From the NCBI GenBank assembly GCA_030704615.1, contig CM060732.1, forward strand, positions 8,308,001-8,372,000: a DNA stretch of 64,000 nt, written 5' to 3'. The position numbers were made by a program, and so were the translations under genes. The notes under the pieces were generated by a model. It saw only the letters and a list, made by a program, of their open reading frames with translations. It ran no database searches and was not told the origin of the DNA. The stretch comes from Takakia lepidozioides (Eukaryota > Plantae > Bryophyta). Below are positions 22,226 to 50,571 of this stretch, in pieces. Positions within the stretch are counted from its first letter, which is position 1; each line of letters opens with the position of its first letter.

Positions 22226-22552
22226 TGTCAAGTTATTTTACCATTAGTGTGAAACTAGCTAGGAAATAGCTAGCTTTTACATATTGACATTTGGGATTGG
22301 CCCAAGTGTCAATCCAGGGGTCGAGGCAGATTTAGGCCTTGGAGTGGTTATCTTCACGGCAAGCGAGGGAGGCTCATCTTTCTCGAGTTGAGCCTCACCG
22401 CGCCTAGCTATGGCGCCGTAGTGTGGATTCCCCATGGCGTGGGGTGCACTTGGCTTGACTTGTATTTGAGTGATGATGTTATATATGCATGAGTTTATGC
22501 TTCAGTTTTGTGAGCTCGCATGAGCTTGTGCTTGTATTCTTCTTCTTTATCA
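22226..22552 (+). repeat. Terminal repeat B1 (327 bp)
   Basis: Direct repeat of 50056-50382 with about 13 substitutions by eye; TG...CA. Confidence 0.93.
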
Positions 22553-22568
22553 CTCGAGAAAGATGAGC
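22552..22568 (+). promoter_or_regulatory. Putative self-priming primer-binding site
   Basis: ACTCGAGAAAGATGAGC is the exact reverse complement of 22372-22388 inside B1; no TGG-type tRNA PBS follows B1. Confidence 0.6.
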
Positions 22569-27143: not shown

Positions 27144-27277
27144 CCCGGGGGGTGCACTCCTCTTTAAATGTACCAGCCACGTGCATGCACAGGAGGGGGT
27201 ATTTTAAACCCCCCCATGTACAACACTATACATACAGAGGGGGGTTTAAAACACCTTAAATATAATTTTACAGGAGG

Positions 27278-28002
27278 TGTCACGGCCCTTTGCCTTGAGG
27301 GCAAGGAGGTCGGGACACAAGAGGGGCTGCCCCTGTGGTGGGGGCAGTAGCAGCAATAGGTACGAGGGCTGAAGCACCCTTGAGTGCCCAAGGCACTCAA
27401 GGAGGCGGAGGCGCTCACTAGGTGGAGCCCCGCACACCGGGTTGCGGTGGGGGTGGCTCCACAAGGGGTGGTGGTAGCTTAGCGGGACTTAGTGGGGGTG
27501 GCATAGGACTCACCATGGGGTGGAGACCTCGAGGTGGGAGTCGTGGGGAGTCTTGGGACTCATCACGGTCCATTGGGGCCGCGGTGAGTGGGCCAAGACT
27601 CACCGCGACTCACCACCGGGAATCGAGGGTCTTCGTGGTGGTTCGCCATAAAATGGCATGGCTGGTTGTGAAACCCCCGCGGACAGCTACAGAAGTATAT
27701 ATAGGGAGTAGTAACCCCGAGAACGGTGTAAGCCCGTTGGTGACCAAAACTAATGAGTAAGCGAGCGAGCCAGAAAGCGACCAAAGAGTGGGGAGCTGTT
27801 CCGGACTGCCATCTACCAAAGGGAATTCTCCTAGTCCCAATTAGGTGGAGGGTTTTAGAGGGAAGCAAAGGGGGACCGTTATGTCCCGGTGAGCAGCCGA
27901 AGCTCCAAGTTGGCCCGGGCGGCTAGGTTGGGAGTCAGGCGCGCGCATCAAAGCGAGTAACTATGACTTGAAGGGGAGCTTACCGAAGTGAGGTGCGCGA
28001 CA
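27278..28002 (+). repeat. 5' LTR of chromovirus copy 2
   Basis: TG...CA, followed by PBS TGGTATCAGAGC. Confidence 0.96.
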
Positions 28003-28057
28003 CTTGGTATCAGAGCTTAGAGTTCAGTACGCGATCGTCCTTGGGATTGGCCTCATC

Positions 28058-31000
28058 ATGGGGTTGGGCAAGCCGAAGCGAAAGCGGAACGGCCCAAAAG
28101 ATGATGATCCCGGTGAGCCCGATGGGGGCGACGTGTCACCGAGGCGGCCGTTTGAGGAAGCGATGCATGTTTCCGGAAACGAGGCCGCTCAAGAGCGGGA
28201 GGAATCCGAGGAGTCGGAGCCCAAGGAATCCTTGAGAGCTCCGACAAACCAAGAGATGCCTCCCATGTCGGCAGCCTTTTGGGAAGGGTTGTTGGCGCAG
28301 TTTGGCAGGACGTTGAAAGATGTGTTGAAGGCGGCTAATGCCACTTCCACTAAGGCAAAGTTTAAGGTGAAGCCTAAGGAACCCGGCACCTTCGAGGGCG
28401 TCCGAAATCAGAAGGCACTCAACACCTGGCTCTTGGAGCTAGAGCAGTACTTCCGGGCGGCCAAGTTGAGTGACGAGGATCGGGTGGAAGTGGCTCCCAC
28501 CTATTTGAGGGGCTATGCTCAACAATGGTGGCAGAAACGCCTTCACGACCGAGGTCCAAGTCCGGAAACCTTGAACTGGAGTGGGTTCAAGGAATTGATG
28601 AAGAGACAGTTTGTGCCCCTCAACGCGTCCTGGCTTGCCCGGGACAAGATGAGGAATTTGAAGCAAACAGATGACATTCGGGGGTATGTCCAGGCTTTCA
28701 ATGTGCTGTTGCTCGAAGTCGCGGACATGGCAGAACCAGAAATGGTCTTCAACTTTGTGGCGGGACTGGCCCCATGGGCCAGGCGGAAGTTGGAGGAGAA
28801 GCCACCCAAGACTTTGAACGAGGCTATTGAGAGGGCTGAATGTTTCTCAGATGTCCCTAGTGGTGAAAGACAAGGTCGTACGGAGCTGAACCACAAGAAG
28901 ATTCGGCGGGAAGGTGACTCCTTCCGACCGGAAAAGAAGTGGGATAGGCCACGCGGCGAAAATGGCACGTGGAAATCGAAGGGAGGGCCTTCACACGTCA
29001 AGGCGGCACTCGGTGCTTCGAAAGGAAAAGCGAAGAAGTGCACGAAGCCCCGGCAATTGAACATGACTCGGGCGACCACGGAGCTGTCGGAAGATACCAT
29101 CAGTCGCTTGGTGGAAGCGGTGGTCGCTAGGACTTGCAAGGTAGGCAAATTTTCTTGTGAGTTGTATCAGGAAACTGGCGCCTTACGAAAAGGGAGTCAG
29201 TTATTGTTCGTGGATGGGATGATATCCGGAACTAATGTGTCGTTGTTGGTGGACATAGGAGCGTCGCACTCCTTCATGACACCGGCAACGGCACAAAAGC
29301 TGGGACTCCCGACAAGTGACGTGGGGGCCTCTATTGAGGTGCGTTCTGCCAAAGGAGAACCACAGTTGGCGACAAGGTTGGCGATTGATGTTCCTCTTCA
29401 ACTGGGGAGTTGGGAGGGACGTGAGAACTTCACCATCTGCGAGATTGATGGAGTGGATCTCATTTTGGGGATGACCTTTTTGAGCAAATCCGGAGCGGTC
29501 ATAGATGGCCGCAAGAGAGTAGTCACGCTGCCATGTGGGAATGGTGGCGAGGTTTTACGAGTGTCTGAAACGCCCAAATCCGTGGGAGGGCGAATAAACC
29601 TTCTGTCAGCAAAGGAGTGGGCCGTGGAGCAGACACACGAGCCCCAGTTTGTGCTTTACATTAGAGAAGTGAAAGGAGAAGGTGATGGGGAGCCGAGCCC
29701 AGATTGGATCAAGGGGATTTTGGAGAAATACCAGGATGTGATGCCGGAGGATTTACCAAGCGGCTTGCCACAGCGAAGAGGAGTTGACCACAAGATTGAG
29801 GTGATACCGAGATCGGAACCGCCTGCCAAGGCGCCCTACCGGTTGAGCCACAGAGAGTTGGTCGAGCTGAAGACTCAGCTCAAGGATCTAATGTCAAAGG
29901 GGTACATCCGGCCGAGTAAGTCACCTTACGGAGCCCTGGTGCTATTTGCAGACAAGAAGGATGGGACGCTGCGGATGTGTGTCGATTACAGGGCTCTGAA
30001 TAAGGTGACTATCAGAAACCGGTACCCTTTGCCAAGAATCGACGACCTCTTCAATCGGTTGGCAGGAGCGAAGTATTTCAGCCGGATCGACTTGCACTCC
30101 GGCTATCACCAAATTCGGGTGGCGGAAGGAGATGAGGAGAAGACCGCGTGCAGGACAAGGTATGGTTCATATGAGTTCTTGGTGATGCCTTTTGGGCTCA
30201 CCAATGCACCAGCGACATTTAGCACGCTGATGAACAGCCTTTTTCAGGAGTGGTTGGATGACTTTGTGATCGTGTACATCGACGACATCTTGGTGTACTT
30301 GAAAACAAAGGAGGAGCACCTGGAGCACCTCAAAAGGGTGTTCCAAAAATTGCGAGAAGGGAAGCTGTATGCCAAAGCTTCAAAGTGCGAATTCGGGGTC
30401 ACGAAAGTAGAGTTATTGGGGCATGTGATTACACAGGATGGGATCAAAATGGATGACAGAAAGGTGAGGGCGATCTTGGACTGGGAGCCTTCGACTTCGG
30501 TCCCGGGAGTGCGATCCTTCCTAGGACTCGCCTCCTATTACCGGAAGTATGTGAGAAATTTTGCCAAGATTGCGGGGCCGCTGTCAGACCTTCTGTGTAA
30601 ATCTAAAGTCTGGGCATGGAACATTTTGTGGCCAAGCTTTTGCTGAATTGAAGCAGCGGATGGCGGAAGCTCCAGTCTTGAAAATCCCGGAGTTCGATCG
30701 TCCATTTGAGATTTATACAGATGCGTCGGACTTCGCGATTGGGGGAGTACTTATGCAAGATGGACGTCCAGTGGCTTACGAAAGTAAGAAACTGAATGAA
30801 GTGGAGCGACGGTGGCCGACGCACGAAAAAGAGATGAAGGCGGTGGTGCATTGCCTTGAGCTTTGGCGCCACTATGTTGGTTCCAACCCAGTGAAGGTGT
30901 TCACGGACAATGTCACAGTGAAGTATTTTGCCACGCAGCCCAAGTTGTCCCCAAAACAACTTAGGTGGCAAGATACTTTGGCGGTGTTCGACGTGGATAT

Positions 31001-32540
31001 CCAGTACAAACCGGGACGGGACAATGTGGTGGCCGATGCTTTAAGTAGAAAGCAGCAGCTTTTGTTGGTGTACAAGGGCGAGACGGCGCTCCAAAGGAAG
31101 ATCCGGAAGGCTTGCCGGAAAGATGAGCTGGCAAAGTCCGTGATGCAGGACTTGAGAATGGGGGTTAAATCGCAGTTTCACTTGCAAAATGGGCTGCTCC
31201 GATATAAGCAAAAGCGTCTCTACGTGCCGAAGGGAGGGATCAGAGATAGCCTCTTGAGAGAATGCCATGATAGCCCGCTTGCGGGCCACGGCGGAGCCAA
31301 GCGCACTGCGGCACTCCTGAAGAAAGAGTATTTCTGGCCCAAACTGAGGGAGGAGGCAGAGGAGTATGTCAAGACATGCACCACATGCCAACAAAACCGG
31401 AGCGAGTACAAAAAGCAAGCGGGGCAGTTACAACCCTTGCCGATTCCAGAGGGGACTTGGGAAAGCGTCTCGATGGATTTCATGACTGCTATGCCGCTGT
31501 CAAAAGGATTCGATGCAATCATGGTGGTGGTGGATAGGTTCAGTAAAATGGGCCATTTCATCCCCACCAAGGAGACAGCAACGGCGCAGGAGACAGGGCG
31601 ACTTTACTTTGCCCACGTCTTAAAACATCATGGAGTCCCGAAGGATATTGTCTCGGATCGCGATCCAAAGTTTACGAGTAAATTTTGGAGGACACTTTGG
31701 AAGAAGATGGGGACGAGGCTGAAGATGAGCACCGCCTTCCGACCTACGACGGACGGCCAAACGGAAAGAGTGAATTCCGTAGTGAAGCAATTCTTGCGGA
31801 ATTACGTGTCGGCAGACCAATCAGACTGGATGGAACACTTAGACGCGGCAGAGTTCTGTTATAATAATACAGAACACTCCGCAACGGGAGTTTCCCCTTT
31901 CGTATTGGTCTATGGAAAAGCACCTCTGGTGCCGACAAGTTGGGTCGCCCAGGACGTTGAGGAACCGGCAGTAGCGGCAGTATTGGAAGAACGTGAGCGT
32001 TTGTTGAAGCTCGCAAAGTACAACATTGCCAAAGCTAGGAAACAGTATGAAAGGCAGGCAAATCGGAAGCGGAGGGAAGTGAAGTTTGAGGCAGGCACAG
32101 AGGTCTGGTTGAACATCAAGAATTTCCGACTACCTCCGGAAGTGAGTCCAAAGTTCGTACCTCCGTATGCGGGACCCTTTCGCATTCGGAAGGTTATGAA
32201 TGAGGATGTGTATGAATTGGAGCTACCGGCAAACAGCAAGGTGCACCCAGTATTCCATGTCTCCCTTTTGAAGCCTTACTTCAAAGATGAAGCGCGTCCG
32301 AATCGGCATCAAGTGTTGCGTCCGCCACCTATGCTATTGGATCATGAAAATGAACCTGAGTACGAGGTGGAGGCAATACTTAAGTCGAGGAGGTTCAAGA
32401 ACCGAGAAACGGAGTATCTCGTCAAATGGAAGGGCTATCATCATGTGGAGGCATCTTGGGTGCGTGCCTCAGAAATGGGAAACGCATCCGAGGCGGTTGC
32501 AGCGTTCGAAGGGCGACCTCAAAAGCGGAAGAAGCGTTGA
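28058..32540 (+). pseudogene. Chromovirus gag-pol with one frameshift at about 30620
   Basis: Protease [10 protein letters not shown] (DTG altered); [11 protein letters not shown] and YIDD; RNase H TDASDFAIG; integrase HHCC, SMDF/SDRD/TDGQTE and GPF; chromodomain EYEVEAIL...EYLVKWKGY...SW. Confidence 0.93.
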
Positions 32541-33444
32541 TGGGGACATCAACCCTGGAGCATGGGGGAGGAAATGCATGCTTAGCCCGGCTTAGCTAGC
32601 TTAGGAATCCGATTGCAAAAACTTGTATTGTACAAAACGTGCTATAAATGAAATGGATTCCAAATGTTGTGCGTCCTATTTTGTTTGGAATGGTGATGCA
32701 TGGAATGGTTGGCTAGTGTGTAGAATGCATGCTAGCTTATAAAAGTGGGAGAGGTAAATTGGGTTAATCGTGTGTTTGCGTAGTGCCGAAATCGGGTGAC
32801 TCCCATCCAAGGGGCAAGGAAACTTGCGCCTTCTTTGGGACTTCACGTGCTAGTGCGCACCTGGCGCGTGCGCGTACTATAACTGCGCTACCGAGGGGGT
32901 TGCCTTGTAGTGCGGGCTAACGCGGAAGCTACGTGCTTCCGTTCACGTACTATAATCGTGTAGCCTCGAGACGAAGTCGTAGTGCGGCTTCGGCGTGTTC
33001 CCGTACCTCAGGCCAGCATTCCAAGGCGGACCCAATTGTAGTGATTGGGGCGCACGGTTGGTTCAAGGTTATCTTCCTAGTCAAAGAGGGTTCCAGGTGA
33101 ACCCTTGCTCAAGGTGATGCCACAAGTGGCATCATGAGCGATCGCAAGCAATGTTGTTGCAGTAAGGCGATTCGATCCTCGGGGAGGATCGTTCCTTGGC
33201 CTTGAAGTAGGCCAAGAAGAGTGCACTGGGAGGAGCTGGAGAGGCTCCACCCTTGGCCGAGACTTGGAGGAAGTCGGCCGAACTAGCTAGTGGAGAGTAA
33301 GTCAAGTGTGGGGTTTGGTTCTTTGCCATGGGACGCCATGGTACGGAAACAAATTCCTTGATGTAGGACGCCACAACTTGGATGTTCGTTTCTACAAAAT
33401 GGACAAGTCGATGAGGACATCGACTCCCTGTTGGTAGGGGTGTG

Positions 33445-34170
33445 TGTCGCGGCCCTTTGCCTTGAGGGCAGGGAGGTCGGGACACAAGAGGGGCTGCCCC
33501 TGTGGTGGGGGCAGTAGCAGCGATAGGTACGAGGGCTGAAGCACCCTTGAGTGCCTTGGGCACTCAAGGAGGCGGAGGCGCTCACTAGGTGGAGCCCCGC
33601 ACACCGGGTTGCGGTGGGGGTGGCTCCACAAGGGGTGGTGGTAGCTTAGCGGGACTTAGTGGGGGTGGCATAGGACTCACCATGGGGTGGAGACCTCGAG
33701 GTGGGAGTTGTGGGGAGTCTTGGGACTCATCACGGTCCATTGGGGCCACGGTGAGTGGGCCAAGACTCACCGCGACTCACCACCGGGAATCGAGGGTCTT
33801 CGTGGTGGTTCACCATAAAATGGCATGGCTGGTTGTGAAACCCCCGCGGACAGCTACAGAAGTATATATAGGGAGTAGTAACCCCGAGAACGGTGCAAGC
33901 CCGTTGGTGACCAAAAACTAGTGAGTAAGCGAGCGAGCCAGAAAGCGACCAAAGAGTGGGGAGCTGTTCCGGACTGCCATCTACCAAAGGGAATTCTCCT
34001 AGTCCCAATTAGGTGGAGGGTTTTAGAGGGAAGCGAAGGGGGACCGTTATGTCCCGGTGAGCAGCCGAAGCTCCAAGTTGGTCCGGGCGGCCAGGTTGGG
34101 AGTCAGGCGCGCGCATCAAAGCGAGTAACTATGACTTGAAGGGGAGCTTACCGAAGTGAGGTGCGCAACA
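33445..34170 (+). repeat. 3' LTR of chromovirus copy 2
   Basis: Direct repeat of 27278-28002, followed by TSD GGAGG. Confidence 0.96.
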
Positions 34171-34737
34171 GGAGGGGGTTGTTGAGTTTTTAGGGATAGT
34201 GTAGTGGTAAGAATGGCGATTCCGCCGCGATGCATCCCGGGATCGAATCGTGGAATCGTCGTTTTGTATGTTTTTTTTTTTTTTTTTTCGCTCCACGATC
34301 TTTCTCCCCTGACCTCCCGTGGCTTTCTCTTTTCTTTCTCCTCCTCTCCCGCGTTCGCCTTCCCTTCCGCGGGCTTTCTCTTTTTCCTCCTCTCCTCTCC
34401 CCTCCTCTCCACAGGGCATGGTAGGACAATGTGGTGAGGGCACCGGAATGTGGTGAGGGCACTGACTTGGGAGAAGGTTTGAGGTTGTGATGTATGTAGA
34501 GGGCAGGAATCGAAGGGGATGAAGTAAGTGCGCGGGAATGTGGGGCAGGCCTGGGCTGATCGGTGATGATATGCGGGTATGGTGGCGGATTGTTGTGCAG
34601 CAATGACAGGAGGACATGGGCATCAAGATTCCCAGTCATCAGAGGTAATGAGCACATTAGGCCTATTTTCTTTCCTAATAATGATTGGCGTGACACAATG
34701 GTTGTACTCACTGTATCAGGCCTATTCTCATCCTTAT

Positions 34738-37409
34738 TGAATCCAAACAGCCAGAGGGACAAGATGCCCCTAAGTGTACAGAACCTGAAGGATTTGGTAC
34801 TCAAGAGTTTACACAAGACGAGCAAAATCTACACATGGGGTAACTGTCCCCCCTTTGCAGAACGGTTGGGCGTCCAGGAGCAATCCCAAACTACCTAGAC
34901 GACAAACAATTCACATGCAAAGGGCTGGTTTGCGGCTGGCCACTTTCAACTTCTCAGGGCTTACTAACCAAAGGAAACAACTCGAAGTGGGACAAGTCCT
35001 TCGGACTAATGATATTCATATCTGTGCTGGGCAAGAAACATGGGAAACTTCGGATAAACTGGTTGGAGATGTCAATGGTAATAAATGGGCAGGTAGGATG
35101 TGTACTCTCAAGGCATCCTCTGCCAAACGCGGTCAAAAAGGGGTTGGATTCTTTGTCCGTGATTTCTTGTTTGATAATTGTGAAATTATCAACAAGGGTT
35201 TGAGGTACGAACATAGTATCTGGCTAAAACTGAATCTGAAGGGCGGCATGAGTACGAAGGACCTCTTTGTGGGTTGTGTTTACATGCCCACAGAGGGGAC
35301 CTTAGTGCTGACGCAAACAAAGCCTTCGAAGATGTAAAGCTGGACTGTGCTTCGTTCCTTGCCAAAGGTCAGGTAGTGCTATTGGGTGACTTCAATGCCC
35401 GGGTGGGCAAAGGGCTCCATCAGGACGATATCATTGGGCCTTTTGGTGAGGACGAGCCCTCTATAAAGAGTGCTGCAATTTGAAAACCAACAGAGAATTG
35501 TGGGCGAGGTACTATCAGCTCCGGAAAGATATCAATCAGCTTGTTAGGTCTCAGAAGAAATTATACTGGGATAAGTTATACAGTGAAATAAACTCAAACC
35601 ACCATGGTGGTAATGACAAGAAATTATGGTTGGCCCTTCAATGTTTGTACAAGCCTAAAAACGGTCAGCAAGTACAAGCGATGAAGACTACTAAAGGTGC
35701 AGTGGTGACTTCATCGGTTGACATTGTCAAAACCTTTGAAAATCACTACAGTATCCTTGGCAGAACTTCTAGGTCTAACAGTGAGGGGTCTTCTGCTGAA
35801 TGGAGGGACACAGTTGGAAAAATTGTTCCTATGATTCAAAACAGCCCTGATGAACTGGAGTATATTTCAATGGCTTATAACGCTCCCATTAGTTCTTCTG
35901 AGATTGTGGAAACAATTGAACATTTAAATGGATATAAAGCTGGTGGACCTGATGGTATTGTCAACGAGCTTATCAAGCACGGTGGCGATCCCATGATAGA
36001 GGCCCTAGTTCTCCTCTTTAACCTTATCTGGAAGACTGAAATGATCCCCTTTCGCTGGCGACAGGGGGTCATTGTCAGTCTATACAAGAAGGGTGACAGA
36101 GAAGAACCGGGGAACTACCGTGGCATCACACTCAGGAGTTGATTAGTTGCGCGAAGAGATACTTTGATCATTGGGGGCTAGAGGCTAATGTCAGCAAATG
36201 TGCAGTGGTAGCATTGAGGAGAGGGAGGAAGTGATCTTAAGTGGCAGTGGGGTAGCCAAGAGATCCCGGTCCTCCCTTCCTACACTTACCTGGGCGTTGA
36301 GTTTTCCTCCAATTGTAATTGGGATGCACATATCCGGAAAGTTGTTCGAACTGGCAAGGGCAAAGCTCTGGGGCTCACTAAATTTTTCCACTGCAGAGGG
36401 GTCATCTCTGAGGTTAAGAAAACCATGCTTTGTCGCGTTATTAGACCTGCCTTGGAGTACGGATCTGCTATATGGGTTGATAACTCCAACCAGGCTAAGT
36501 CTCTAGAATCCATTCAAGTGGGGGTGCTTAAGGAGTGTATGTCAGCATGCTCCAAAACAGCCAATGTGGCTGTTCGGGGTGAGTTTGGCATTCCATCCTT
36601 AAGCTCCCGACGAGATGAATTCAAGGTCAGATGGTGGGGTCAGCTGCAACATATGCCCAACACCAGATATCCTAAGTTGATTGACTCTATATCTTGGAAA
36701 CAGGACCGCCCTGTCAAACAGGCTAAGTCCTGGCAGAAGAGAGTAGAAAAGATTCTCAAGGACCTGGACCTGGATCCGCAAGTCTTGACCCTGCTGGATA
36801 AATCTGCCTTAGAGGCTAGTGTCTGAGGCCATGTCTGTTGCCATGAGATTGTCTGATGAAAATGAAGTTAGGCAGAGAACTTCCCTGAACTTGTTTCCAG
36901 TCAGTGACATGGGGGTGGACATCTTGGATGACCTCAAGGGTCTACCCACTCTCGGCACTAGACTGAAATTGAAACTCAGGGCAGGAAGCCTACCTTTGAA
37001 CAGCAAACAGAAGCAGAGAAGAAAGGGAGAGTGCAATTGTCCGTTGTGTGGGCAATCTGAAGACAGTATTCATTTTTTGATACGCTGTCCGGGTTCTCTC
37101 ACCAAAGAGAGGCTCTCTTCAATTCTATCAAGGGAATTGTGCCTGTACCCCTGTTTACCAACTTTGAAAGTCTCGAGGCTGAGCCAAAAGCCCAGGCCCT
37201 CCTAAGGCCTAGTTTTTGGGCAAATCACACACAGCAGATTGATGCTTGTGTGAAGGGATTTCTAGAGGATATCTGGAAAACCCGGATTAATTCCTTATAC
37301 GATGGTAAGTCTTACTACCAACGTCAGCCCTGTTCCTTTTGTTCCCACTGAAACTGGGCGCGGGGTCAATGGCCACAAGGCTACGGCAAACAACGTCTTA
37401 TGAGTACAA
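34738..37409 (+). mobile_element. 5'-truncated LINE with several internal deletions
   Basis: APE and RT fragments match 58400-62475; 12-bp TSD TCTCATCCTTAT (34726-34737, 37410-37421). Confidence 0.9.
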
Positions 37410-37927
37410 TCTCATCCTTATCATCCCTCGCCTTTTGGAAAATTCCAGCCATAATTGAAGGGCAATTGGTTGTTGTACTTAACTGCACGAATGTTCCCCT
37501 TTCTGTTGGAATGAGCCGCACGTCCTTTCCATGCTGACATACCCTTTCTTCTTCCTGCAGGATCCTTTGCCCAGCCCTGTTATTTCTATCATTTGTGCCA
37601 TCCTCTTGGCGTTTCCACAGCCTCCCCTCATTGCCAGTGAAGTGTTTCTTTCTCTTCCCTTTGTCTTTAAAGACACTCCAACTGTTAGCTGCAGTACCCT
37701 TCGCTGATTTCTTATTGCCTTTGACCTCATGTATGTTTTCAATCATGTTTGAAGGGTGATCACTTGCTGCCATATGCATGACTGTGTCCTTGACTGCTTC
37801 TCTTGTCTCAGTATGATGTTTAATTGTTGTCATGTCAGGCTGTGCTCAGCTGCACCGTGGTGTCTTCAAATGGATCAATTTTTCAGACACGGTCTTGCCA
37901 ACTGAATGATGCAGGTTCACTTGGGAG

Positions 37928-38555
37928 AGTGCACTCCCCCTTTCCTCTCTGCTTCTGTTTCATGTTCAAAGGTAGGCTTCCTTCCCTGAGTTTAAATTTC
38001 AGTCTAGTGCCGAGAGTGGGTGGACCCTTGAGGTCATCCAAGATGTCCTCCCCCATGTCACTGACTAGAAACAAGTTCAGGGAAGTTTTATGCCTAACTT
38101 CATTTTCATCAGACAATCTCATGGCAATAGACATGGCTTTGGACACTACAGCCTCTAAGTCTGATTTATCCAGCAGGGTCAAGACTTGTGGATCCAGGTC
38201 CAGGTCCTTGAGAATCTCTTCTACTCTGGCCTTGGGAAAACACCTTTGGATCTCAGTCCAGAAAGTGGTCAGAGGTACCAATATCAGTTCTGTCGATCAA
38301 CACATTGGCACACTTGGGGAACAAATTTTTGTCCATTATGATATAGTCCACAATGGAACGTTCCCCAGTTTGGGATTTCTCACGAGTCCACTGCACTTGG
38401 TCACCTCTTGTCTTGTTAATCAAGGTCAAAAGCTGAAGCTCTTCCAGACAGTTAATTAACCGTCTGCCATTAGAATTCAGCTCGTCCTCACCAGAAGACC
38501 CAATGATATCGTCCTGATGGAGCCCTTTGCCCACTTGGGCATTGAAGTCACCCTA
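37928..38555 (-). mobile_element. Rearranged LINE fragment (an APE piece fused to a C-terminal piece)
   Basis: GDFNA...GKGLHQDDIIG...IVDYII...SDH joined to RVEEILKDLDLDPQ...GKGEC. Confidence 0.85.
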
Positions 38556-39624
38556 CAATAGCACCACAGAGATGAAGAGAAGCTTTGGAATGAGACACTT
38601 TTCTGACCCCAGTCAATGGTGGGACAATGTGGGTGGATGGTCAACTGGAAACAGCATCGACAACAGCGCAATTGATAAAGCAAGGCACTGCTGATGAAAG
38701 GTACCTTCTTCAACACATTTCAGCCTGAGGGCACCTTCTGGTTTGACCTGTTTCAGCCTGTTTTTCCCTCTCATCAGACTCAGCCCTGAAGCATATGTAT
38801 TGAATTCTGTAAGTTAGCTCGTTGGGTGGATCTGCGGTGCTCTGGAGTGACTTTGCAAGTTGCTGCCGAGGTGGTAGCATGACAGTACCTAAAAAAAGAT
38901 AATAGATAGAACAAGGGATTGCTAATGAAGGTACCTTCTTCAACACATTTCAGCCTGTTTTTCCCTATTATCAGAGTCGTCCCTAGATTTCCAGATGGCG
39001 GATTCCAAGCTCCAGATTACCTATGATTCCATGTGGAATGATAGCTACAAGAAACCTGGATGGGTAGATGGTCAACTGGAAGCCACAGTAGTAGCTGCAG
39101 AGGCATGATGTACGCATTGTTAGTGTGGAGGGAGGGGTAGCTGTTGATGCAGGGAGAGGATCGTGGGTGCAAAATCATCCAAGAGGGCCAGATTTGGAGC
39201 AAGGAACAGCGCTGGCAGGAGTTCTATAAATTTGATCCACAGCGGTGGGACAATATTGTCAACAAGGTGAGCTTTCTTCATGCAACATCGTAGGGAGTTT
39301 GACATAACTTTGTATTTAAATATGTTAGTGTGGAGGGAGGGCTAGCCGCTGATGCAAGGATGGACTGTGGGTTCAGGATCACCCAAGAGGGCTACCAGCA
39401 GTGGAAGTAGCAGCATTTGGTCAATAGCAGCAGCAAAAATTAACAACATCAAACTCATCAATCAGGTACTTGCTTTTGTATACATTTCATCCTCTTATGA
39501 ACGTAGTTCCTACTTGGACAGCCTATAGGGTTGTATAAAACAGGACTTTGGAACCTTCCAACCCGGGTGCTTTGTTATTGGTCTATCAAGGTCTGATTTG
39601 AAATATTTTCATTGCATTTTGCAG

Positions 39625-42600
39625 GTGAACTCATCATGGAAGAAGAGTTGGAAGTAAAAGTCATGCTTGTTGGAGGAGATGCATCACCAAACAGGCTTGG
39701 TTCTGTGTTCACTATGCAAGGTGTCACATACAAATGCATCCGAGCAGAAATTATAGGTGATGAGCTTGTCTCAGCAAAATTTCATTTCCTTTCCATGGGG
39801 GGTAGTGTCCTTTCAGCCAAGCAAGAAGAGAGGATGGTTCTGAAAGGGGATATTGTACACATTAAGATTTCAGACCAAAATGATGGGGACCAAAGATTGA
39901 AAAGACCTCTATCTTCCAGTGGTTCTACGATCTTGCATGAGGACAGACCAGGCGAGGACCCGGCACCAGTGTCTATCAAGATGAGGATGGACCCTGATAC
40001 ACCCTTTGCTGGCGATGGTGGAAATGAAGACCATGCACATGAGCATGCACTTCAGCAGAGATCTGGTAGATTGTGCAGCACGTTGGCTACATCCAACGAT
40101 ATTCAAAAATGGCAGAAAGAGATTAGAGCCGTTGAAAGGAAAATCTCTGCAGAAGGACGATGTGACAAGTTTGAGCTGATGACAAAGGATCAACAAGGAC
40201 AAGCAATGTTCCACATATGGTGTATTGAGTGTGAGGATGTTTATGCACGGTCCGGGAAAAACAAACCATATGATGCATGTGCAAACTTTATGAGATCTCA
40301 TTTGAGGAGTGAGGGGCATCGCATAGCCTATGAGAGGCGTCAGAGGAAGTCGCTCGGTTTTGTGAGGACAATCCTGGAAACAGATTTGAGATTGTGGAAG
40401 CCACAATTGGAGACTATTCGCAGTTGGGTTCCATAAGGATTAGGTGCCCACTGGATTCGAAGTGGCTACTCTTGTTTCCAAGGACAGGTTCTTTGCAATC
40501 TTCTTTGACAGAGCATGTGAAAGGAAAAACTCATGTCGATGCAGAGATTTGCCAGAAGGTTGGAAGTAGTGAAGGACCTTGCAAAAAGAGAGGAAGGCCT
40601 CCAAAGCCTATGATTGCCAAAGATGTAAAGCAATGGGATCTAAGCTCTTTCTTGGTCAGTCAACCTGTGTTGCCGTCCCCACCACTTGACAATCCAATTG
40701 TGGCATCAACAATGGGAGCATCCTCGTCACAAACTCCATACGCTTGTGTTGACGCTGCCCAACGGGGAGATCTGATCGAGGATTGACAATTACAGCAAAG
40801 GTCCCAATGCAACAAAGGAAGAGACAGTTTGTGTTGGGGCCTATGGGATGAATGGTGGGAGTACAACCAGCAGAGAATAAGTCTGAAACCATTCCTTCAA
40901 GATAGCAAGGGAGGAAAGAAGTGGTATGTCGAGCCGTTGACAAATGCAACCATCACTCTAAACAATCAAGAGCATAAGGTTGTTGGTACGTTTCGGCACG
41001 CGGATTGTTTTAGAGTGTCATTGGATGGGGAGCCATTTCCAAACTTGAGATGTTCAGCATGTTCTTCCATTCCCTTGGAAAATGACTTCAGAATGAGGGT
41101 ATATAGAGAAAGAGGTGCCATGGAATGTAGAGGGGAGAGAGATACTGGCAAGGGAAGAAGGTTGTCATATCTTGGAAATGCGGAGATTGTCAAACAAGTT
41201 TACAAAAACAGACAGGAGTTGAGGCAGTTGAGGTTCAAATTGTGGGAGGCCAGGACCAAAGTGGCATCATTGTCTGTGCGATGTAGGAGTTTGAAGGAGT
41301 CTGGGATTGAGGCAATTGAAAGAGGAGATGTTCTCAAATTTTGTCGTGATATTGTTGATGCACATAGGAGGCGGGATTTTGAAGGAAAAGAAAGTTTGTG
41401 GGATTTTCTTGTTGATATGGGCAAGAATATTGACAGGTCTCCACAAGGGAAGAGGTATGGTACTCGCACAAAAACAATGTTTGAGACTGTGCAGCTTTGG
41501 GGGGGTCCGAGATTGCATCATTTTTTGGCTTCAAATGTGGGGGGTCCTTCTATTGATACTACAAGACGGTCTTTGAGGAAAGGTTTGAAGTATAGAGCGG
41601 GAGAAACGGATGATATATTTCAGCATGTGGCTGGAATTTACAGAGATGTGATGGAAGATGCAAATATTCCATTGGGAAGCATCCCAGTGATGGTGGCCGA
41701 AGATGAAACTGTTGTGAAGCGATTGGTACGTTGGATTGCTAGGGATGACACCCTTCTCGGGTTTTGTGGGCTTCAAGACAACCATGTATGTATTTCAAAT
41801 TTTGTGGTGCAAGTGGGAGAAGAGGAATCAGGGTACCAACATATTGTGGAGGCATTCAAAACAATGTGGTTGCCCATTATGCTAGAGTGTTGATAGCAAA
41901 TCCTCTACATGTACAGTTACCTCGATTGGTATTGGTAATCCAGCTCACTTGCAATAGATTTGACAACAATTTTGTGAGATCACAATGGGAAGTAGTGAGA
42001 CAGTTGTGGGACAAATATGTGAGGGACGTGGTTGGGCCTATAATTGGGCATGCTTCAGACGGAGATAGTAGGAGGAGAAAAGTGATGTTAGAAGATTATG
42101 CCAATGGGGCTGGAAATAGATTTTGCATCCCTTGGGAAGGATGGTTGTTTACAGGTCGAGTGTGCAACGGGGGAGATATATACGGACTCCATGATCAGGA
42201 CTTCATCCACAATGGGGAAAAATTGGTAAATCCCTTGGACAGTGCATCACGGACTTTGGTGTTGGGTGATGAGGTTGCTACATTGAATCACGTGTTATTG
42301 GTCTACCATTCATTTTCAGTGGACAAGCATGGACTTCGGGAATGTGATATCAAAAGAGAAGATCGACAGAATTGGGCAGCAGCTCAACGATTGGCATCTC
42401 GGAAGGTGCAAGATTGTTTGAGGGAGTTACAATCAACTGTGAATCATCGAAGAGAGAGGACCAAAGGTACTGAAATTTACCTATACATCATTTCATGCTA
42501 CATCGACATTTTTTTGTCTCCTCACATGTCATTGTGTGAGAGGGTACAATCTGCTGCGAAGGTATCATTTTTTTTTTCAGATTGTGGAAGTTGTGGCTAT

Positions 42601-43926
42601 TCTAGCACGAGGTGTATAATCTAAAATCCTTCTTCATTAGCAGGGAAGCATACTTGGATTTACAAATTTCATGCCACTACGTGGTTCTACTTATCAAATT
42701 GTTCAAGGATAAGTTTAATCATGTGCAAGTTCCTTTGAGCCTTGTTGGTTCAGATGTGTGTGAAATATTCTTCAGCAAAGTGGGAGGTATGTCACGGAAT
42801 GAGAGGACATATGACGGGTGTGATTTGATTGAGAGTGCGGGAGCATTAACACGCATATCCGAGTTCGAGGCGAATCCAAAAGGACCCAAGTTCTCAAGAG
42901 CTCACAAGAAACAAGAACACATATGGTCTTCTTTGGAGAAGAAGCCAGGTATCCCCCTTGCTGATTTGTCCGACTTTTCTACTGTCCAATCGGATGATTG
43001 CATTGTAGAGGCTTTGAAAACTGGATTTCTATGCCATAAACTTGGGATGAAACCAAACAAAGCAACAAACTTGGATTGGTGGAATGAGCCATGGACAATT
43101 GAGAGACAAATGGAGGTCGAGCTATTCAAAAGCATGGAAGAGGAGGGTGATGATGTCAATGCCATAGATTCTATTTGTCCTCTTAAAATGAGGTCGTGGA
43201 AGATGAATTGGTGTGCGGGCCTTCGAATTCAATGGAGGATGTTTTGAGCCAACCTTTGGATGATCATGCGGAAGAGGTTCAAAGTGAATTGAGACATACT
43301 CTGGATGCTGTCATTGATGAGTTTGAACAAGAGAAAGATGGATCGAAGACAGTGGTTCCATTTGTCAAAGTAGACGGGAAGACCATATTCAAAAGCACTT
43401 TGGTTAGCCAACTCAATGGCAACCCTCCTCTATCCAAGGATAGATTGACACGAGTAAGAAGTGCATCGATGTTGTTTTGCCGAGAAAACAAACCAACTAC
43501 CAGCAACAAAGCCACGAGCTTGGGATTGGGTTTGGATTGTGCTGGGAGACTGCGATCCAAACTACAAACAGGAAAGGTAGACCAGGGAAAACCTGCAGAG
43601 GAGCAACCAAAGGCACTTGGTATTTGGGCAGGGTTCAAAGAATGCGGAAGAAAATCAATAAGCGGTTTGTAGAATGTAGAGATTCTGTTGATTTATTGGA
43701 GCGTCCTTCTCATATGGAGATTGGGTTAGCATGGTACCAAAAAATTCGAGGAGGGGTCTATACGTACGATTTGACGGATAACATGATGGTTAATTTGGAT
43801 TCCATTATCGCGTTAGCATGTTTAAAGTACAATGTCAAGTCAAACACATATGTTCTTGATGCAAATGACCGAAAAGTCTTTGACAACTTTATCAAAGACA
43901 AATATTTTTTTAAATTAATTTGTTAG
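39625..43926 (+). pseudogene. P-element/THAP9-like DDE transposase with N-terminal zinc fingers and multiple frameshifts
   Basis: Motifs in order VAEDETVVK, HASDGDSRRR, DQDFIHNGEKL, DRQNWAAAQRL, SDVCEIFFSKVG parallel the P-type DEM..K / SD / D..H..K / A.QL / D..E.FFS; upstream CIEC...H....GH finger. Confidence 0.7.
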
Positions 43927-44371
43927 ATTTTATTATGTTTTAAATGAATAAATTCGATATAATATAAAAACATACATATACATATTGGAGGGTTATTTTT
44001 AATGATGAAAAATGAGAATATACATACAGAAGGGGGTACTTTTCGAAAATTGTAAATTTTTGTATATTTACAGGAGGGGATTTTATAATCTTCAAAAAGT
44101 ATGTACAGAGTGGGTATAAATTATCCAAGGACCCGTATACAGGGGTTTTTTTTATTAGGCGACGAACGCACGTGATACGCACAGTTTATAAAGAGTGCAC
44201 CCCCCGGGGGTAAGACCAGCTGAGGTGTTCAGGCTGGCAGCTACACTCTGTGAGAGTGGGGATGTTACCTCATTTTCTGCGGAGATAGTGGGAGGTGTAG
44301 TGCCGGAGGGATCTTCGAATTTGAGGGTCAAGACTGCCACGGCAGCGCCATGACAAGCTGTAGCTGCCAGG

Positions 44372-44830
44372 TTGATGGAGCTGCCAGCTAGGCCAGCCAT
44401 TGAGCGCGCCATGGTGACACCTGGAGTTGTCATGTTAGACAACCAGAATGACATTTTATATTTGAGTGGACCGGCAGGCAAGAGGTACCGGCCACTGCGG
44501 GTCTTGTTGGACTCGGGAGCTCAGCCATTGATGCTGGGCAGAGCTGCTATTGAAGGCTTGGGCCTCACGGAGGCGGATATGGAGCCTTGTCCTTTCCAGA
44601 TACAGACGTCTCTGGGAGGATCGGAGCAGGCTCGGGGCATGACACGGCGTGAGTTGGCTATCAGACTACGGCCGGATCACCCTACAGATGGCTCAGTGAT
44701 GCGAGCCAAGGCCATTGTGACAGACGCGGTCTCGTACGATGTCCTGGTTGGTGGGGCACTCTTGTACCCCATGGGCTTCATCCTGGATTTTTGGGAGGAT
44801 TCAGCTTCCTATAGGCCTGGATGGCAGTCA
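44372..44830 (+). pseudogene. Aspartic protease domain of the DNMT-bearing element
   Basis: RVLLDSGAQP and YDVLVGG retropepsin-like motifs. Confidence 0.8.
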
Positions 44831-45217
44831 GGGGAGGGCCAGCATGTGCAGCTCCCTGTGACATTCATAGGAGGAGTTGTGGTTGCCCAGCAAGGCAAGA
44901 TGCCGATACTAGCAGCATTCACAGCTGCAGTGAGTTGGCCTGGAGAGTTGCTTGAGGGCAACGCTCATTTAGAGGATGTGTCACCTCCAGGAGAGCAGGA
45001 TGACATGTATGGTATGGCGGAGTTGCCTGCCATGGTTGCTCAGACTCCATTGTGGGGCACGAACAAGGATTTGCAGCGGGTTGCTGATCGACGGGTGCAA
45101 CAAACCTGGGTGGAGGCTTTTGTACCATCAGGAGAGGAGGAGAGTGCGGGGATTGCACCAGGACCACCTCAGTTGTCTCTATTGGACACCACACCTATTG
45201 TGTGGCAGTATCCGGAT

Positions 45218-46200
45218 GAAGACATTTGTCTTCTGGACTTGTTTGGCGGGATCAGCACCGGATTGGCTGCTGTGTTACAGGCAGGTGTACGAGTTCGGCG
45301 TTACCTGTATGTGGAGATGGATGAGACTGCACGACGCATTTCACTTCGCCATGTTGCTTAGTTGGTGCAGCAGTACCCTGAGTTGTTGCCGGTGTCTGCA
45401 GTTCGTGGATATCAGCAGGCCTTACCAGCAGACATTTCATTGCTGGGGCGCAGGATTTGGAGCGGGTTGGCTCCATTGATCTGATAGTGGCAGGTTGGCC
45501 CTGCCAAGGGCATTCATCAGCCGGATATGGCAATGGATTGCGAGACTCGAGGTCGGGTCTGTTTTGGGAGATGGTGCGGGTTTTGCGCCATTTGCAGCTT
45601 CATCAAGCTGTATCTCCAACATACATCTCAGAGAATGTGCCACTGATGGGCGATTCTCGGGCCAGGGTGATGGCCAGTGTGCATCAAGTCCGGTCGTGGC
45701 TTGGGTCAGCAGTGTTGCTGGATGCAGCTACAGTGGGGTCACGGGCTCATCGTCCACGGCTATGGTGGACTAACTTGATGCCACCCACACTGCTCAAGCG
45801 TGCATTTGATGGGGTGCAGCGGCCAGCACACGTCACAGTGGATAGCATTTTGGACACAAGGAGGCAGTCTCAACGTGTGAGACACAATGACCGTTCGCCT
45901 TTGGCAGTGGTCAACAGGGTGGGTCAACCACGAGCAGCATTACCTACACTGCTCAGCTTCCCAGGATCGCATGCTTTTTGGGATAATGGACCTGGCCTCT
46001 TGTGGGATGCTCAGTTGCAGCAGTTAGTGGAGCCTAATGCTGACGAGCGTGAACGGGCAATGGGTTTTACCACTGGTACCACGGCGGTGTCATCTCTTTC
46101 TGAGGCATCACATTGTCAGGTGTTGGGGCAAACAATTGATCTCAATTGCTTAACTTGGATTATCAGCTTGGCTATGGCTGAGCAACGCAGAGTGCGGAGT
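45218..46200 (+). pseudogene. DNA (cytosine-5) methyltransferase domain, DNMT3-like, within pol
   Basis: Motifs I LDLFGGI, II YVE.D, IV DLIVAGWPCQG, VI ENV, VIII AHRPRLWWTNL, IX ERERAMGF and X VLGQ; one stop at 45359 and one frameshift at about 45450. Confidence 0.92.
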
Positions 46201-46599
46201 ACACTTCCCTCGATGGTCTCTTTGCCTACCGAGACGGTACAGGCAATGAGTGGGGGCGAGCATGTGAGAACCACGGGGTGTAGGTATCCATGGCACACGT
46301 GGGAGGTGCTCGAGGTTCAGAGGGAGTTGGCAGCCAAGGTGGCGGTGATGGATGAGGTTGGGGATTTTTCTCGGGTTGAGGAAGTCCTCGAGGATGAGAT
46401 GATGGGGCAGGATGAGGCTTTGTCATTGACTGAGCAGGTAGGGAGTACTGCTCAAGAGGTTGCAACATAGCAACCACTGGACGCGTCCTCTACCTCTAAG
46501 CCCACTGGACTTAAGGTTGCACTTACGGAGGACAATTGGGAGCCTGACATTGGACCCATTGTCACCGGAGGAGAGAGACGATGTATACGGCGGTTCCTG

Positions 46600-47970
46600 A
46601 GGGCTTACAGGAATTGCTTTGCCTTCAGTTTGAAGGACTTGGGAGCACTGAAGGGTCAAGAGATTCGTATTGAGTTGGCCACTGACATGCCAATCTTTCG
46701 GAGACCCTATAGATATAGTGACATGGAGAGGTCTTTGATTCAGATGAGGACTCAAGATCTCTAGGAGGCTGGTTTGGTGGAGCTCTCTGGTGGAGAGTAT
46801 GCTTCAACCACAATGATGCTAGCCAAGAAGGATGTGTATGGCAATTGGACGGAGAGACGTATGTGCGGTGCTTACCGACTTGTAAATCGTCAGACCAAGT
46901 CCGATAAGTATGCCATGCCAACACCAGAGGAGATCTTTGATGCCATCGGGCATGCTAAGGTCTTTAGCACTTTGGATTTACGATCCGGATATCACCAGTT
47001 GCCGATCAAGGAGGCGGACAAGCAGAAGACGAAATTCTGGGGGATCAATGAGCACGGCAAGGATTGCCTATATCAGTGGCGGTTCTTACCATTTGGACTT
47101 AAGAATGCTCCTGCAGAGTTTCAGAGAGTCATGGATAGGATTCTAGAAGGGATGGACTTTGCTCGGTGCTATATAGATGACATCATCATCTTTAGTGCTA
47201 TAGTGGAGGAGCATGAGAGACACCTTCAGGTGGTATTAGAGCGCTTGAGAACGCACGGATTGAAGTTGCATCCGGGGTGCAAGTTTTTCCACAACAAGAT
47301 TGAGTATCTGGGTCACATGATATATCCTGGAGGATTGGGGGTACAACAGACTAAGATAGAGGCCATTGCACAAATTCCACGCCCCACGGATGTGAGCCGA
47401 GTTCGAGCTTTCATGGGGTTGGCAAACTATTATAGACGGTTTGTCAAGGGTTTTAGTGCCATTGCAAAGGCTCTAACCAAGTTGACCAAGGTGGACTAGG
47501 AGTGACAATGGGAAGATGAACAGGAACGAGCTTTCCAAGAGCTCAAGGCGAGGTTGACCTCGGCGCCTATCCTGAGACGACCTATCAGGGGGCGTCCCTT
47601 TCAGCTGCATACGGATTGGAGCATGCTGGGGCTTGGGACAGTGCTCACATAGGTGGATGATGAGGGAACAAAGTTCGTAGTGGCTTATGCTAGCCGCTCG
47701 AACAACGCTGCAGAGGCTAAGTACAGCTCATATGAAAGAGAGTGCTTAGCTGCAGTGTGGGCCGTGGCACATTTCAGGTGCTATCTATAAGGCAATCTCT
47801 TCACCCTTGTCACGGATCACCAGCCACTCAAGTGGTTGATGGAGTCAGACAAGCTTACGGGGAAGCTTGCACGGTGGGCACTCATACTTCAGGAGTATGA
47901 CTTTCAGGTTGTGGGGATCGACCAGGTTTGGTCAATCGGGATGTGGATGGATTGAGTCGCAATCCATGCA
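46600..47970 (+). pseudogene. Reverse transcriptase and RNase H of the DNMT-bearing element
   Basis: YAMPTPEE, LDLRSGYHQ, LPFGLKNAPAEFQ, YIDD; RNase H LHTDWS...YSSYE.ECLA...TDHQPL. Confidence 0.92.
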
Positions 47971-48289
47971 CGAGCCAGCAGGATGACACTGGAGCTCGGT
48001 GGCACGGTGAGACGGACAAGGAGATGGTGTCGGGATGACATGCATATGTCTTTTTGTGTATCTTGGCATCGGGAGGTCGGTTGGACCTACAACAGGGATG
48101 ACTGTAGACGGACTGTCTGAGGACCCTGAGGCTAGTGATGAGCCAGGTGGTACCAGAGATATACATGAGGATTCGTCTGTGTTGGACTACCTCCGTACTG
48201 GAGACATGGCAGCCACTGTGACTGCCAATGAGAGGGATCGGATCCTGCAACGAGCAAAGAGGTTCAAGTGGGAGGGGATACACCTGCTC

Positions 48290-49606
48290 TGAGTATGGGA
48301 GGATGGTCGGGTGAGGATTGTGCCTCATCCCACACAGCGTGCACGGTTAGTGCGGCATGCCCATGAGAAGTTGGGGCATTTTGGAGTGCGACGCATTCAC
48401 AGTTTACTGCAGGGGCAGTATTGGTGGCGTGGTATGCATATAGAGGTGCAACAGTTCGTGGCTAGGTGCATGGTGTGTGACAGGGTGCGTGCTTCATTCA
48501 ACGCCCCTACACCACAGTTGCATCCTTTACCAATCATGGGATTGGGCTACAGGTGGAGTCTTGACTTCGCAGGACCGTTACCACTGACTATGCGCCACCA
48601 CAGATAGGTGTTGGTGATGGTGGAGCACTTCTCCAAGTGGATTGAGTTGGTTCCGTTGCCTGACAAGACTAGTAAGGGGGCTGCGTATACATTCTTGGAT
48701 CGTGTGCTTAGCCGATTCGGTGCTCCAGCTGAGGTACTCACGGACCAAGGGAGAGAGTTCTTGGGGGAGTTTCAGGCTTTGTGTGATAAAGCCTTGATAG
48801 ATCACCGCACCACTTCTCGGGATCATCCTGAGGCCGATGGCTTGGCAGAGAGAGTTGTTCAGATGGTGAAGAGGGGTTTACGCAAGTATGGCTTGGCAGA
48901 AGGGACACCTAAGAGATTGGGATCTTCAGGTACCTTGGTTAGCCATGGGCTACCGGTTCAGCAAACAAGCATCACTTGCCTCATTCTCACCATATTTTCT
49001 TCTCTTTGGCCGAGAGCCGGATTTGCCTACAGCCATTTGTAGGGACACTGCTCAAGTCCTTAACCTTGACGATCCAGACGAGTGGGTACGTGCATGTGAT
49101 CAGCGTGCAGAGTTGTTCAAGAAAGTCATGCCCATGGCTTTTGAGAACCTTGCCATTGCACAGCACCGTGATACGTTGAGGTATGCCACTATACGTGGTG
49201 GAGGATATCGTCCTGGGGTTCGGAAGTTTAGCCCTAGTGACTATGTTTATTTGCAGCAGACTGCTCCTACGACCCTGGATGTGACTGCAGGGCGTGTTAT
49301 TCTGAGGGTTCGAGAGGTGTTGCCCTCAGGAGTCCTGATCTTGGAGGGTCGGGATGACATGACTTGGAAGGATCATGTGCGTAATTGTGCGCCATGTCAC
49401 CTTCCCAATGTTGATGGCAGAGTTGACCCAAACTTGGCAGTGGTACCTGCAGGTTTGAGGTGCATGCTCTGTGGGTCTGCCAAAGGGGTAGCCACCATGC
49501 TGGTGTGTGATCGATGCTCAAGGGGTTGGCATATGGGATGCTTGACACCACCTCTTGAGAAGGTTTTCTGACGGAGATTGGTTGTGTCCACACTGCTTGG
49601 GATAGT
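48290..49606 (+). pseudogene. DDE integrase with a C-terminal PHD finger
   Basis: HHCC (HEKLGH...CMVC), WSLDFAGP, VLTDQGREF, DGLAER; PHD CMLC...CDRC...WHMGC...WLCPHC with a frameshift in the last part. Confidence 0.9.
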
Positions 49607-49864
49607 GGCAGTGGACATGACTGGAGGCAGCTAACAAGACATGGGAGGCCAATCTCATAGGAGTCAATACACGAGATCCCAGGCTCAAATTCACAGGTTG
49701 CAAGATGGCGACTAACGATGGGGCAACTCTTGCACTCGGCCTCTTGATCTATCGAGTTTGAGTGTAGTAGGGATAGTGGTGGAGGACTTAGTGAGGCTAT
49801 GGTCACTATCACATCTTGTGGCTACCTGGACTTAGAGGGACCTAAGCACCAGCTAGGGGGACGA

Positions 49865-50571
49865 TTGTGTGGACTAGTGACTGCCATAGTGGGCAGCATA
49901 GTGGCAACCTAGTGACTGACTAGTTGTAGCCTAGTGGTTGGACTAGTGGCTGGACTAGTGGTGGACTAGTGATATACTAGTGTGTGGTGTGCACATGTGT
50001 TGTGTGGTTTTGGACAACGATGTAGTTGTGTAGCGATATGTATGCGCACGACAGCTGTCAAGTTATTTTACCACTAGTATGAAACTAGCTAGGAAATAGC
50101 TAGCTTTTACATATTGACATTTGGGACTGGCCCAAGTGTCAATCCAGGGGTCAAGACAGATTTAGGCCCTGGAGTGGTTATCTTTACGACAAGCGCGGGA
50201 GGCTCATCTTTCTCGAGTTGAGCCTCACCGCGCCTAGCTATGGCGCCGTAGTGTGGATTCTCCATGGCGTGGGGTGCACTTGGCTTGACTTGTATTTGAG
50301 TGATGAGGTTATATATGCATGAGTTTATGCTTCAGCTTTGTGAGCTCGCATGAGCTTGTGCTTGTATTCTTCTTATTTATCATTGTGTGGACTAGTGACT
50401 GCCATAGTGGGCAGCATAGTGGCAGCCTAGTGACTGACTAGTTGTAGCCTAGTGGTTGGACTAGTGGCTGGACTAGTGGTGGACTAGTGGTATACTAGTG
50501 TGTGGTGTGCACATGTGTTGTGTGGTTTTGGACAGCGATGTAGTTGTGTAGCGATATGTATGCGCACGACA
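49865..50571 (+). repeat. 3' terminal A1-B2-A2 split direct repeats
   Basis: A1 49865-50053 and A2 50383-50571 (189 bp, 3 differences) flank B2 50056-50382; purine tract AGGGGGACGA precedes A1. Confidence 0.93.

Follow-up and report, generated by a model that had tools for sequence, protein, structure and literature searches.

A DNMT3-type methyltransferase domain ahead of a conserved, probably leaky stop codon in a Gypsy retrotransposon family of mosses, liverworts and algae

Why should a retrotransposon of the moss Takakia lepidozioides carry a cytosine-5 DNA methyltransferase (DNMT), and is the domain a regular part of the element or something that merely fell into it? Earlier accounts of retrotransposons with a de novo cytosine methyltransferase of their own concern dinoflagellates and one alga. 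The window analysed here, a stretch of 64,000 nucleotides from contig CM060732.1, was originally predicted to hold a DNMT within pol that might extend the phenomenon to land plants. The kind of element is already known from the alga Klebsormidium nitens; what our sequence comparisons appear to add are members in liverworts and mosses, a conserved stop codon of the leaky type and the anatomy of priming.

The domain itself (45218..46197, + strand), delimited by profile search, three-frame translation and comparison with relatives, matches Pfam PF00145 with 46.7 bits (E 4e-12, cutoff 22). Positions counted from the three-frame translation place motif I, LFGG, at 45239-45250, followed by YVEMD (II), GWPCQG with the catalytic cysteine at 45502 (IV), ENV at 45631 (VI), AHRPRLWWTN with arginines at 45751 and 45757 (VIII), ERERAMGF at about 46045 (IX) and VLGQTID at about 46120 (X). 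Both this translation and the alignment of relatives give the canonical I-X order and not that of DRM, and the original prediction of canonically ordered motifs with retained catalytic residues is thereby borne out. The predicted damage was also found, namely a single stop (45359-45361) and a single frameshift near 45440; a read-depth comparison indicates that the frameshift is not present in other copies of the family. The nearest solved sequences to the window fragment are DNMT3A/3B (E 5e-6), followed by M.HhaI (5e-4). The fold was assessed on an AlphaFold model (pLDDT 94.9) of the open DNMT domain of a relative, L001, which is 65% identical to that of the window. Foldseek returned DNMT3A/B as the best match (E 4e-20), with all top 34 entries being DNMT3, and VIA-align gave Z 29.8 for DNMT3A/B (rmsd 2.6, 274 aligned) against 24.6 for M.HhaI. 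The catalytic domain and the motif order are thus like those of the host enzymes PpDNMT3a/b (Yaari et al. 2019, PMC6453930), but the latter have a C-terminal DUF3444 and no Gag-Pol embedding. A Pfam search of the window revealed no DUF3444, the DNMT being fused instead to Gag and protease (PR), and this marker of host plant DNMT3 occurred in 0 of 196 listed protein-search matches.

The surrounding element extends from 22226 to 50571 on the + strand (TGTC...GACA), as defined by self-BLAST, inspection of its ends, target-site duplication (TSD) and read depth. It is flanked by the 4-bp TSD GGGG (22222-22225 and 50572-50575), and read depth drops about 100-fold past 50608. The gag-PR-RT-RH-IN order, the DDE integrase, the TG...CA ends and the short TSD identify it as Ty3/Gypsy. 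The gag and 5' part of ORF1 (25363..27139, +; PF03732 E 0.0015), broken here, correspond to residues 1-540 of the Marchantia protein P0122. ORF1 is split by a DNA element (27145..44207) that has terminal inverted repeats and a 10-bp TSD (27135-27144 and 44208-44217), which is why 17 kb now separate gag from the protease downstream. Residues 1-540 of P0122 map before and residues 539-1243 after this foreign insertion, and two runs, X2 and X5, contain loose ends that connect 44204 to the 27.1-kb sequence. Beyond it follow, all on the + strand, the aspartic protease with LLDSGA (44426..44815; PF13650 E 0.0076, with matches in relatives), the DNMT, reverse transcriptase and RNase H with several stops (46531..47913; PF00078 E 1e-28, PF17919 E 3e-11), a broken integrase comprising H2C2 zinc finger, rve core and C-terminal part (48158..49430; PF17921 E 1e-15, PF00665 E 2e-11) and a C-terminal PHD finger (49437..49600; PF00628 E 9e-7), present in relatives too. 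The expected collinearity of DNMT with protease and RT is therefore real, and the DNMT is intronless within the Gypsy polyprotein region. The window copy of the element as a whole is dead.

The 17-kb insertion has a history of its own. Its terminal inverted repeats are short, and it contains chromovirus and LINE pieces. Its ORFs (39597-43926) look transposase-like by eye, with no Pfam matches above cutoff. The chromovirus nested in it (27278-34170) has LTRs 97.8% identical, a 5-bp TSD and a chromodomain, and a related fragment lies inverted at 293-2043.

Is the DNMT a property of this copy or of the family? As many as 69,411 contigs of run X1 align to 44200-50800 of the window, and depth over four DNMT bins (0.77-1.22 million) is level with that over three RT bins (0.83-0.95 million), figures that are not copy numbers. 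The same evenness was seen in run X5. Although depths do not count copies, this evenness shows that the DNMT belongs to the regular make-up of the family, and the possibility raised at the outset that it would be absent from other copies is not what was found. Protein searches with the DNMT gave 215 and 76 matches, of which 120 and 76 were listed, with 147 representatives at E below 1e-30. Named relatives, at 60-71% identity, belong to Marchantia polymorpha, M. paleacea, Calypogeia, Riccia and Sphagnum, so that the suspected extension of retrotransposon DNMTs to land plants is confirmed; remoter named members are from Closterium and Klebsormidium nitens, and further named ones from Scenedesmus and Cymbomonas. 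In Marchantia polymorpha, many Gag-PR-DNMT frames are open and annotated just as hypothetical proteins; Mp_4g09160 is an example of an annotated Marchantia frame of this kind. This is a model plant with genetics and methylomes, in which the question of what DNMT elements do is directly testable. Moreover, DNMT counts for bryophyte and algal genomes may include or miss Gypsy-DNMT3 copies.

Most related loci have the same PR-DNMT-RT order as the window. Among 370 proteins, 30 are Gag-PR-DNMT, 19 PR-DNMT, 33 RT-RH-DNMT-IN-PHD and 193 DNMT-only fragments. The RT-RH-DNMT-IN-PHD order is a second architecture, found in chlorophytes (P0169, P0261, P0349 and others; named Scenedesmus and Cymbomonas, the Cymbomonas protein having DNMT-IN alone visible), and we found no mention of it in the available text of the cited literature. 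One family member, P0043, is labelled as an Obscuribacterales MAG and probably reflects eukaryotic contamination of the bin. Loci L036-L050, whose match is limited to motifs IV-VI, were left out. The two of them that were inspected turned out to be something else and were kept solely as outgroups: L038 is a phage gene, and L047 (4912-12762) is a tyrosine-recombinase retroelement, resembling SymbioDIRS-Dnmt3, in which a C5 methyltransferase follows RT and the repeats run A...B-A-B.

In the DNMT tree of 154 rows, built from retroelement domains with outgroups, the window belongs to the same clade as Calypogeia, Marchantia and Sphagnum (support 1.0 in FastTree, 100 in a quick IQ-TREE run), where it sits among liverwort and moss elements at 65-72% identity. 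Within this sampling, the domain groups with retrotransposon domains of other lineages. The RT-RH tree (77 rows, K. nitens RT not included) gives the same land-plant placement at 0.999 and keeps the two domain orders largely apart. The K. nitens DNMT is unstable: FastTree joins it to the family at 0.87, and the quick IQ-TREE run puts it outside all other retro-domains, with long outgroups. Because dS is saturated in most between-lineage pairs, those of the window included, selection was read from relatives. For one close, unsaturated pair of open copies (L015/L016), dN/dS of the DNMT is 0.138; L001 or L022 against nearer lineages gives 0.10-0.19. The suggested comparison across copies thus yields about 0.1-0.2 between lineages, and by this measure the DNMT is under purifying selection. 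Decayed peat-moss-like copies have values of 0.35-0.7 for DNMT and 0.35-0.9 for RT.

An in-frame TAG followed by CAA-CCA (46468..46476, +) separates the DNMT from RT, with both domains in the same frame. At the matching site, 20 of the 21 related loci with both domains have TAG or TAA and then CAR-YY(A/C). These 21 loci were drawn from 50, the degenerate L030-L032 and loci lacking the RT linker being omitted; in L023 a nearer stop results from decay. The exact CAR-YYA is found in L001, L015, L016, L022 and the window, the second codon being Pro, Leu or Ser, against an in-frame background of 8/2412, and CAA-CCC, with its last base off the consensus, in 16 of the 20 loci, which are peat-moss-like and several of which are one insertion. 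L015 is entirely open, with 1369 codons, one stop and 1047 codons. In agreement with a stop at this distance, Gag-PR-DNMT proteins of Marchantia and many others end about 95-165 residues past motif X. The stop is not universal, as P0239 and P0220 are among the relatives without any. Judged by these alignments, the TAG between DNMT and RT is a conserved feature and not damage. Its context is identical to UAG-CAR-YYA, the type I or TMV-type readthrough signal of plant viruses, in which UAA works as well (PMC3542737), and the TMV context gives about 20-32% readthrough in plant reporters (PMC2754532). The conserved stop is therefore likely to be leaky and read through. Since the DNMT lies upstream of it, the domain closes the Gag-PR ORF, and the DNMT is likely to be made as the C-terminal domain of Gag-PR, in a predicted several-fold excess over RT. 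The original description of a DNMT embedded in pol between protease and RT consequently holds for its location, but not for its membership in pol, as the domain ends the Gag-PR ORF upstream of the stop at 46468.

Instead of an ordinary pair of identical LTRs round an internal region, the element has split repeats in the order A-coding-B-A-B, as does its relative L021. Self-comparison defines A1 (22226..22552, with TG start and CA end), 96% identical to A2 (50056..50382), and B1 (49865..50053, ending in GACA), 98% identical to B2 (50383..50571), which is the right end of the element; all are on the + strand. Such an arrangement is DIRS-like, but a tyrosine recombinase is absent as the integration enzyme, its place being taken by an integrase with rve and H2C2 parts and a 4-bp TSD, seen in the window and in L021. 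A predicted 16-nt self-primer (22372..22387, +) is the perfect complement of the 16 nt directly after A1 (22553..22568, +), a presumed primer-binding-site position of the self-priming type that is also supported by relatives; 0 of 2000 shuffles reached 16, the maximum being 10. The stem is common to L021 and L015 with differing letters, and this covariation points to Tf1-like self-priming. A purine tract abutting B1 (49855..49861, +), the predicted plus-strand primer, recurs as a motif in L021, L015, L022, L005, L007 and L008. With the primer site following A and the purine tract preceding B, the cDNA should be a conventional B-A-coding-B-A.

How, then, would such a cDNA give rise to the integrated form? 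The integrated element begins with the start of A and finishes with the end of B; inside the repeat these two ends abut as the palindrome GACA-GC-TGTC (50050..50059), which L021 and L022 share and which differs by one change in L015. This suggests that integrase uses the B|A junction of circular cDNA as an internal attachment site. A B-A-coding-B-A cDNA, once circularised and opened at the upstream junction, would yield exactly A-coding-B-A-B. Opening of a two-repeat circle is compatible with variable A|B joints and with copies ending in coding-B. Three forms of A|B joint occur among three elements, one of them, in a rearranged copy, retaining primer-site bases (9 nt at the joint in L024:12952-13240), and copies at L007:11467-11616 and L008:6908-7057 stop at coding-PPT-B with no A after. 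Random opening should also yield A-B-A-coding-B, yet among 7 distinct 5' flanks B precedes A in none, and the model therefore has to assume that one junction is chosen. Most of the relatives inspected retain a CpG just within the B end. The repeat anatomy thus offers a testable model for DIRS-like split repeats in an integrase element. The window element has itself inserted, at a short palindrome, into a sequence related to its own A repeat, inverted and about 75% identical (21947-22225, 50572-50771).

The closest known system is KnitGypsy-Dnmt3 of K. nitens, a DNMT3-carrying Gypsy element (de Mendoza et al. 2018, PMC5890265). It shares with our family the Gypsy domain set, an intronless and unpermuted DNMT3 under purifying selection, and the DIRS-like split repeats A-coding-B-A-B (Fig. 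4 legend). The zfCCHC-PR-DNMT order is shared by the K. nitens protein GAQ93235.1, a partial sequence that likewise stops after the DNMT. On the other hand, the DNMT domains are only 36% identical; the K. nitens DNMT is placed by that paper in the RT/RNase H ORF, whereas here a conserved stop intervenes in the same frame; and KnitGypsy-Dnmt3 has few copies, whereas the window family is very abundant. The available text of that account does not mention land-plant or chlorophyte members, a readthrough signal, a self-priming stem or a PHD finger. The survey behind it covered 96 genomes, and its species table has Physcomitrella, without Marchantia or Sphagnum. SymbioDIRS-Dnmt3 of the same study resembles our family in placing DNMT3 in a retrotransposon with A-coding-B-A-B repeats and two domain orders in one group, and CG activity has been shown for it in yeast; it uses a tyrosine recombinase, in contrast to the DDE integrase and 4-bp TSDs found here. 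EpiLTRs and DAM-LTRs (bioRxiv 10.64898/2026.05.21.726589) are LTR retrotransposons that have likewise captured methyltransferases, together with a chromatin reader, but their DNMT is sister to DNMT4, stands at the end of pol and is accompanied by DAM and a chromodomain; the authors describe it as distinct from the streptophyte Gypsy-DNMT3. The same logic, in which the primer site is complementary to a repeat of the element itself, underlies self-priming of the Tf1/Tcn1 type (PMC6317226). As far as the available sources go, our family differs from the TMV-type stop and Tf1/Tcn1 priming precedents in being a non-chromovirus Gypsy with its stop after PR-DNMT instead of gag. In the available text of the Phygy/Selgy paper (PMC6317226), the words 'methyltransferase' and 'PHD' both occur 0 times. 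The accessible parts of the literature searched hold no description of land-plant or chlorophyte members, of the readthrough stop or of the priming signals, but supplementary trees (PMC5890265, PMC12344493, 2026 preprint) might include Marchantia.

Taken together, these observations are best explained, we think with moderate confidence, by an old green-plant Gypsy family that makes Gag-PR-DNMT ahead of a leaky stop, so that DNMT would be in excess in the particle and would likely methylate new cDNA. Readthrough of the stop would yield RT-RNaseH-integrase-PHD, and PR would release abundant DNMT3 inside the particle. There the enzyme would methylate newly made cDNA, and insertions would arrive marked like host heterochromatin. 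CpG and CHG ratios of the window element show no clear difference from neighbouring repeats. A bolder version, which we regard as doubtful, would add that the Gypsy lineage matches green plants in age and supplies an active DNMT3 at capsid stoichiometry through the leaky stop, that this enzyme marks the cDNA, and that integration proceeds by the internal palindrome of circular cDNA. If true, circle integration at an internal site would follow a route otherwise taken by recombinase elements. In that case the DNMT might determine the junction to be cut and, where a genome contains very many copies, would contribute to the host methylome.

Two other views of the enzyme's target deserve consideration, neither of which we think likely. 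A DNMT made at the level of Gag might work in trans, with host chromatin or other copies as its chief target instead of its own cDNA. Its position before the conserved stop would make it abundant, and isolated SymbioDIRS DNMT3 domains methylate yeast chromosomes (PMC5890265). Furthermore, the 2018 authors argued for cis action since DNMT and RT share an ORF (PMC5890265, peer-review file), a premise that does not hold in land-plant elements, where the stop separates the two domains. The conserved stop thus alters the expected dose of the enzyme and weakens the published case for strictly cis action. Against trans action, the chlorophyte relatives hold the DNMT between RNase H and integrase in Pol, which suits action on cDNA, and the methylome of K. 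nitens is ordinary and plant-like (PMC5890265). It should also be considered that Gag fusions are expected to remain in cytoplasmic particles.

With much the same low probability, the domain might act on RNA or RNA:DNA hybrids, or bind without methyl transfer, for instance guarding or selecting the integration junction. The K. nitens enzyme, the one Gypsy DNMT assayed so far, produced no methylation in yeast (PMC5890265), a result its authors called inconclusive, human DNMT3B having been inactive likewise; the CpG kept inside the B end and the seemingly biased choice of junction would also fit. However, fold and motif VI ENV place the domain with the DNMT3 enzymes that methylate DNA, and the L001 model matches the tRNA enzyme EhMeth with Z 23.2, below the 29.8 obtained for DNMT3A/B. 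Moreover, the catalytic residues are nearly invariant among 152 aligned retroelement DNMT domains (gaps excluded): the cysteine is kept in 149/150, the motif VI glutamate in 151/152 and the two motif VIII arginines in 146/150 and 147/149.

Instead of being read through, the stop might be passed by splicing or reinitiation, in the manner of elements whose PR and RT are separated by an intron, but this seems improbable to us. Some automatic gene models (P0127 and P0162, from Marchantia and Sphagnum) do connect the DNMT to the RT linker, but open copies show a lone in-frame stop with no change of frame, and the conserved bases match the readthrough consensus even though the encoded residue varies. 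For reinitiation, the first in-frame ATG is 73 codons past the stop in the window and 117 in L015, and there it lies within conserved sequence. Finally, the domain could be a host DNMT3 fragment captured once and locally, or a chimera of the assembly, a view for which the broken window copy and a tree without host DNMT3 might be cited. It is hardly credible: depth is even over the family, introns are absent, 30 Gag-PR-DNMT proteins and most related loci have the order of the window, and the domain is 60-71% identical to those in retroelements of distant plants.

The rest of the window is also rich in mobile elements. A Replitron HUH transposase lies at 51464-52300 (PF21859 E 2e-12, PF21860 E 1e-8), and copies of a LINE-like element, 91-96% identical, are found at 34800-37418, 58778-62483 and 3720-4290. 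A long inverted repeat with arms of about 1.6 kb and 90% identity occupies 2036-6812. A host gene at 53456-55777 contains a zf-HIT exon that resembles streptophyte clusters and is of the box C/D snoRNA protein 1 type.
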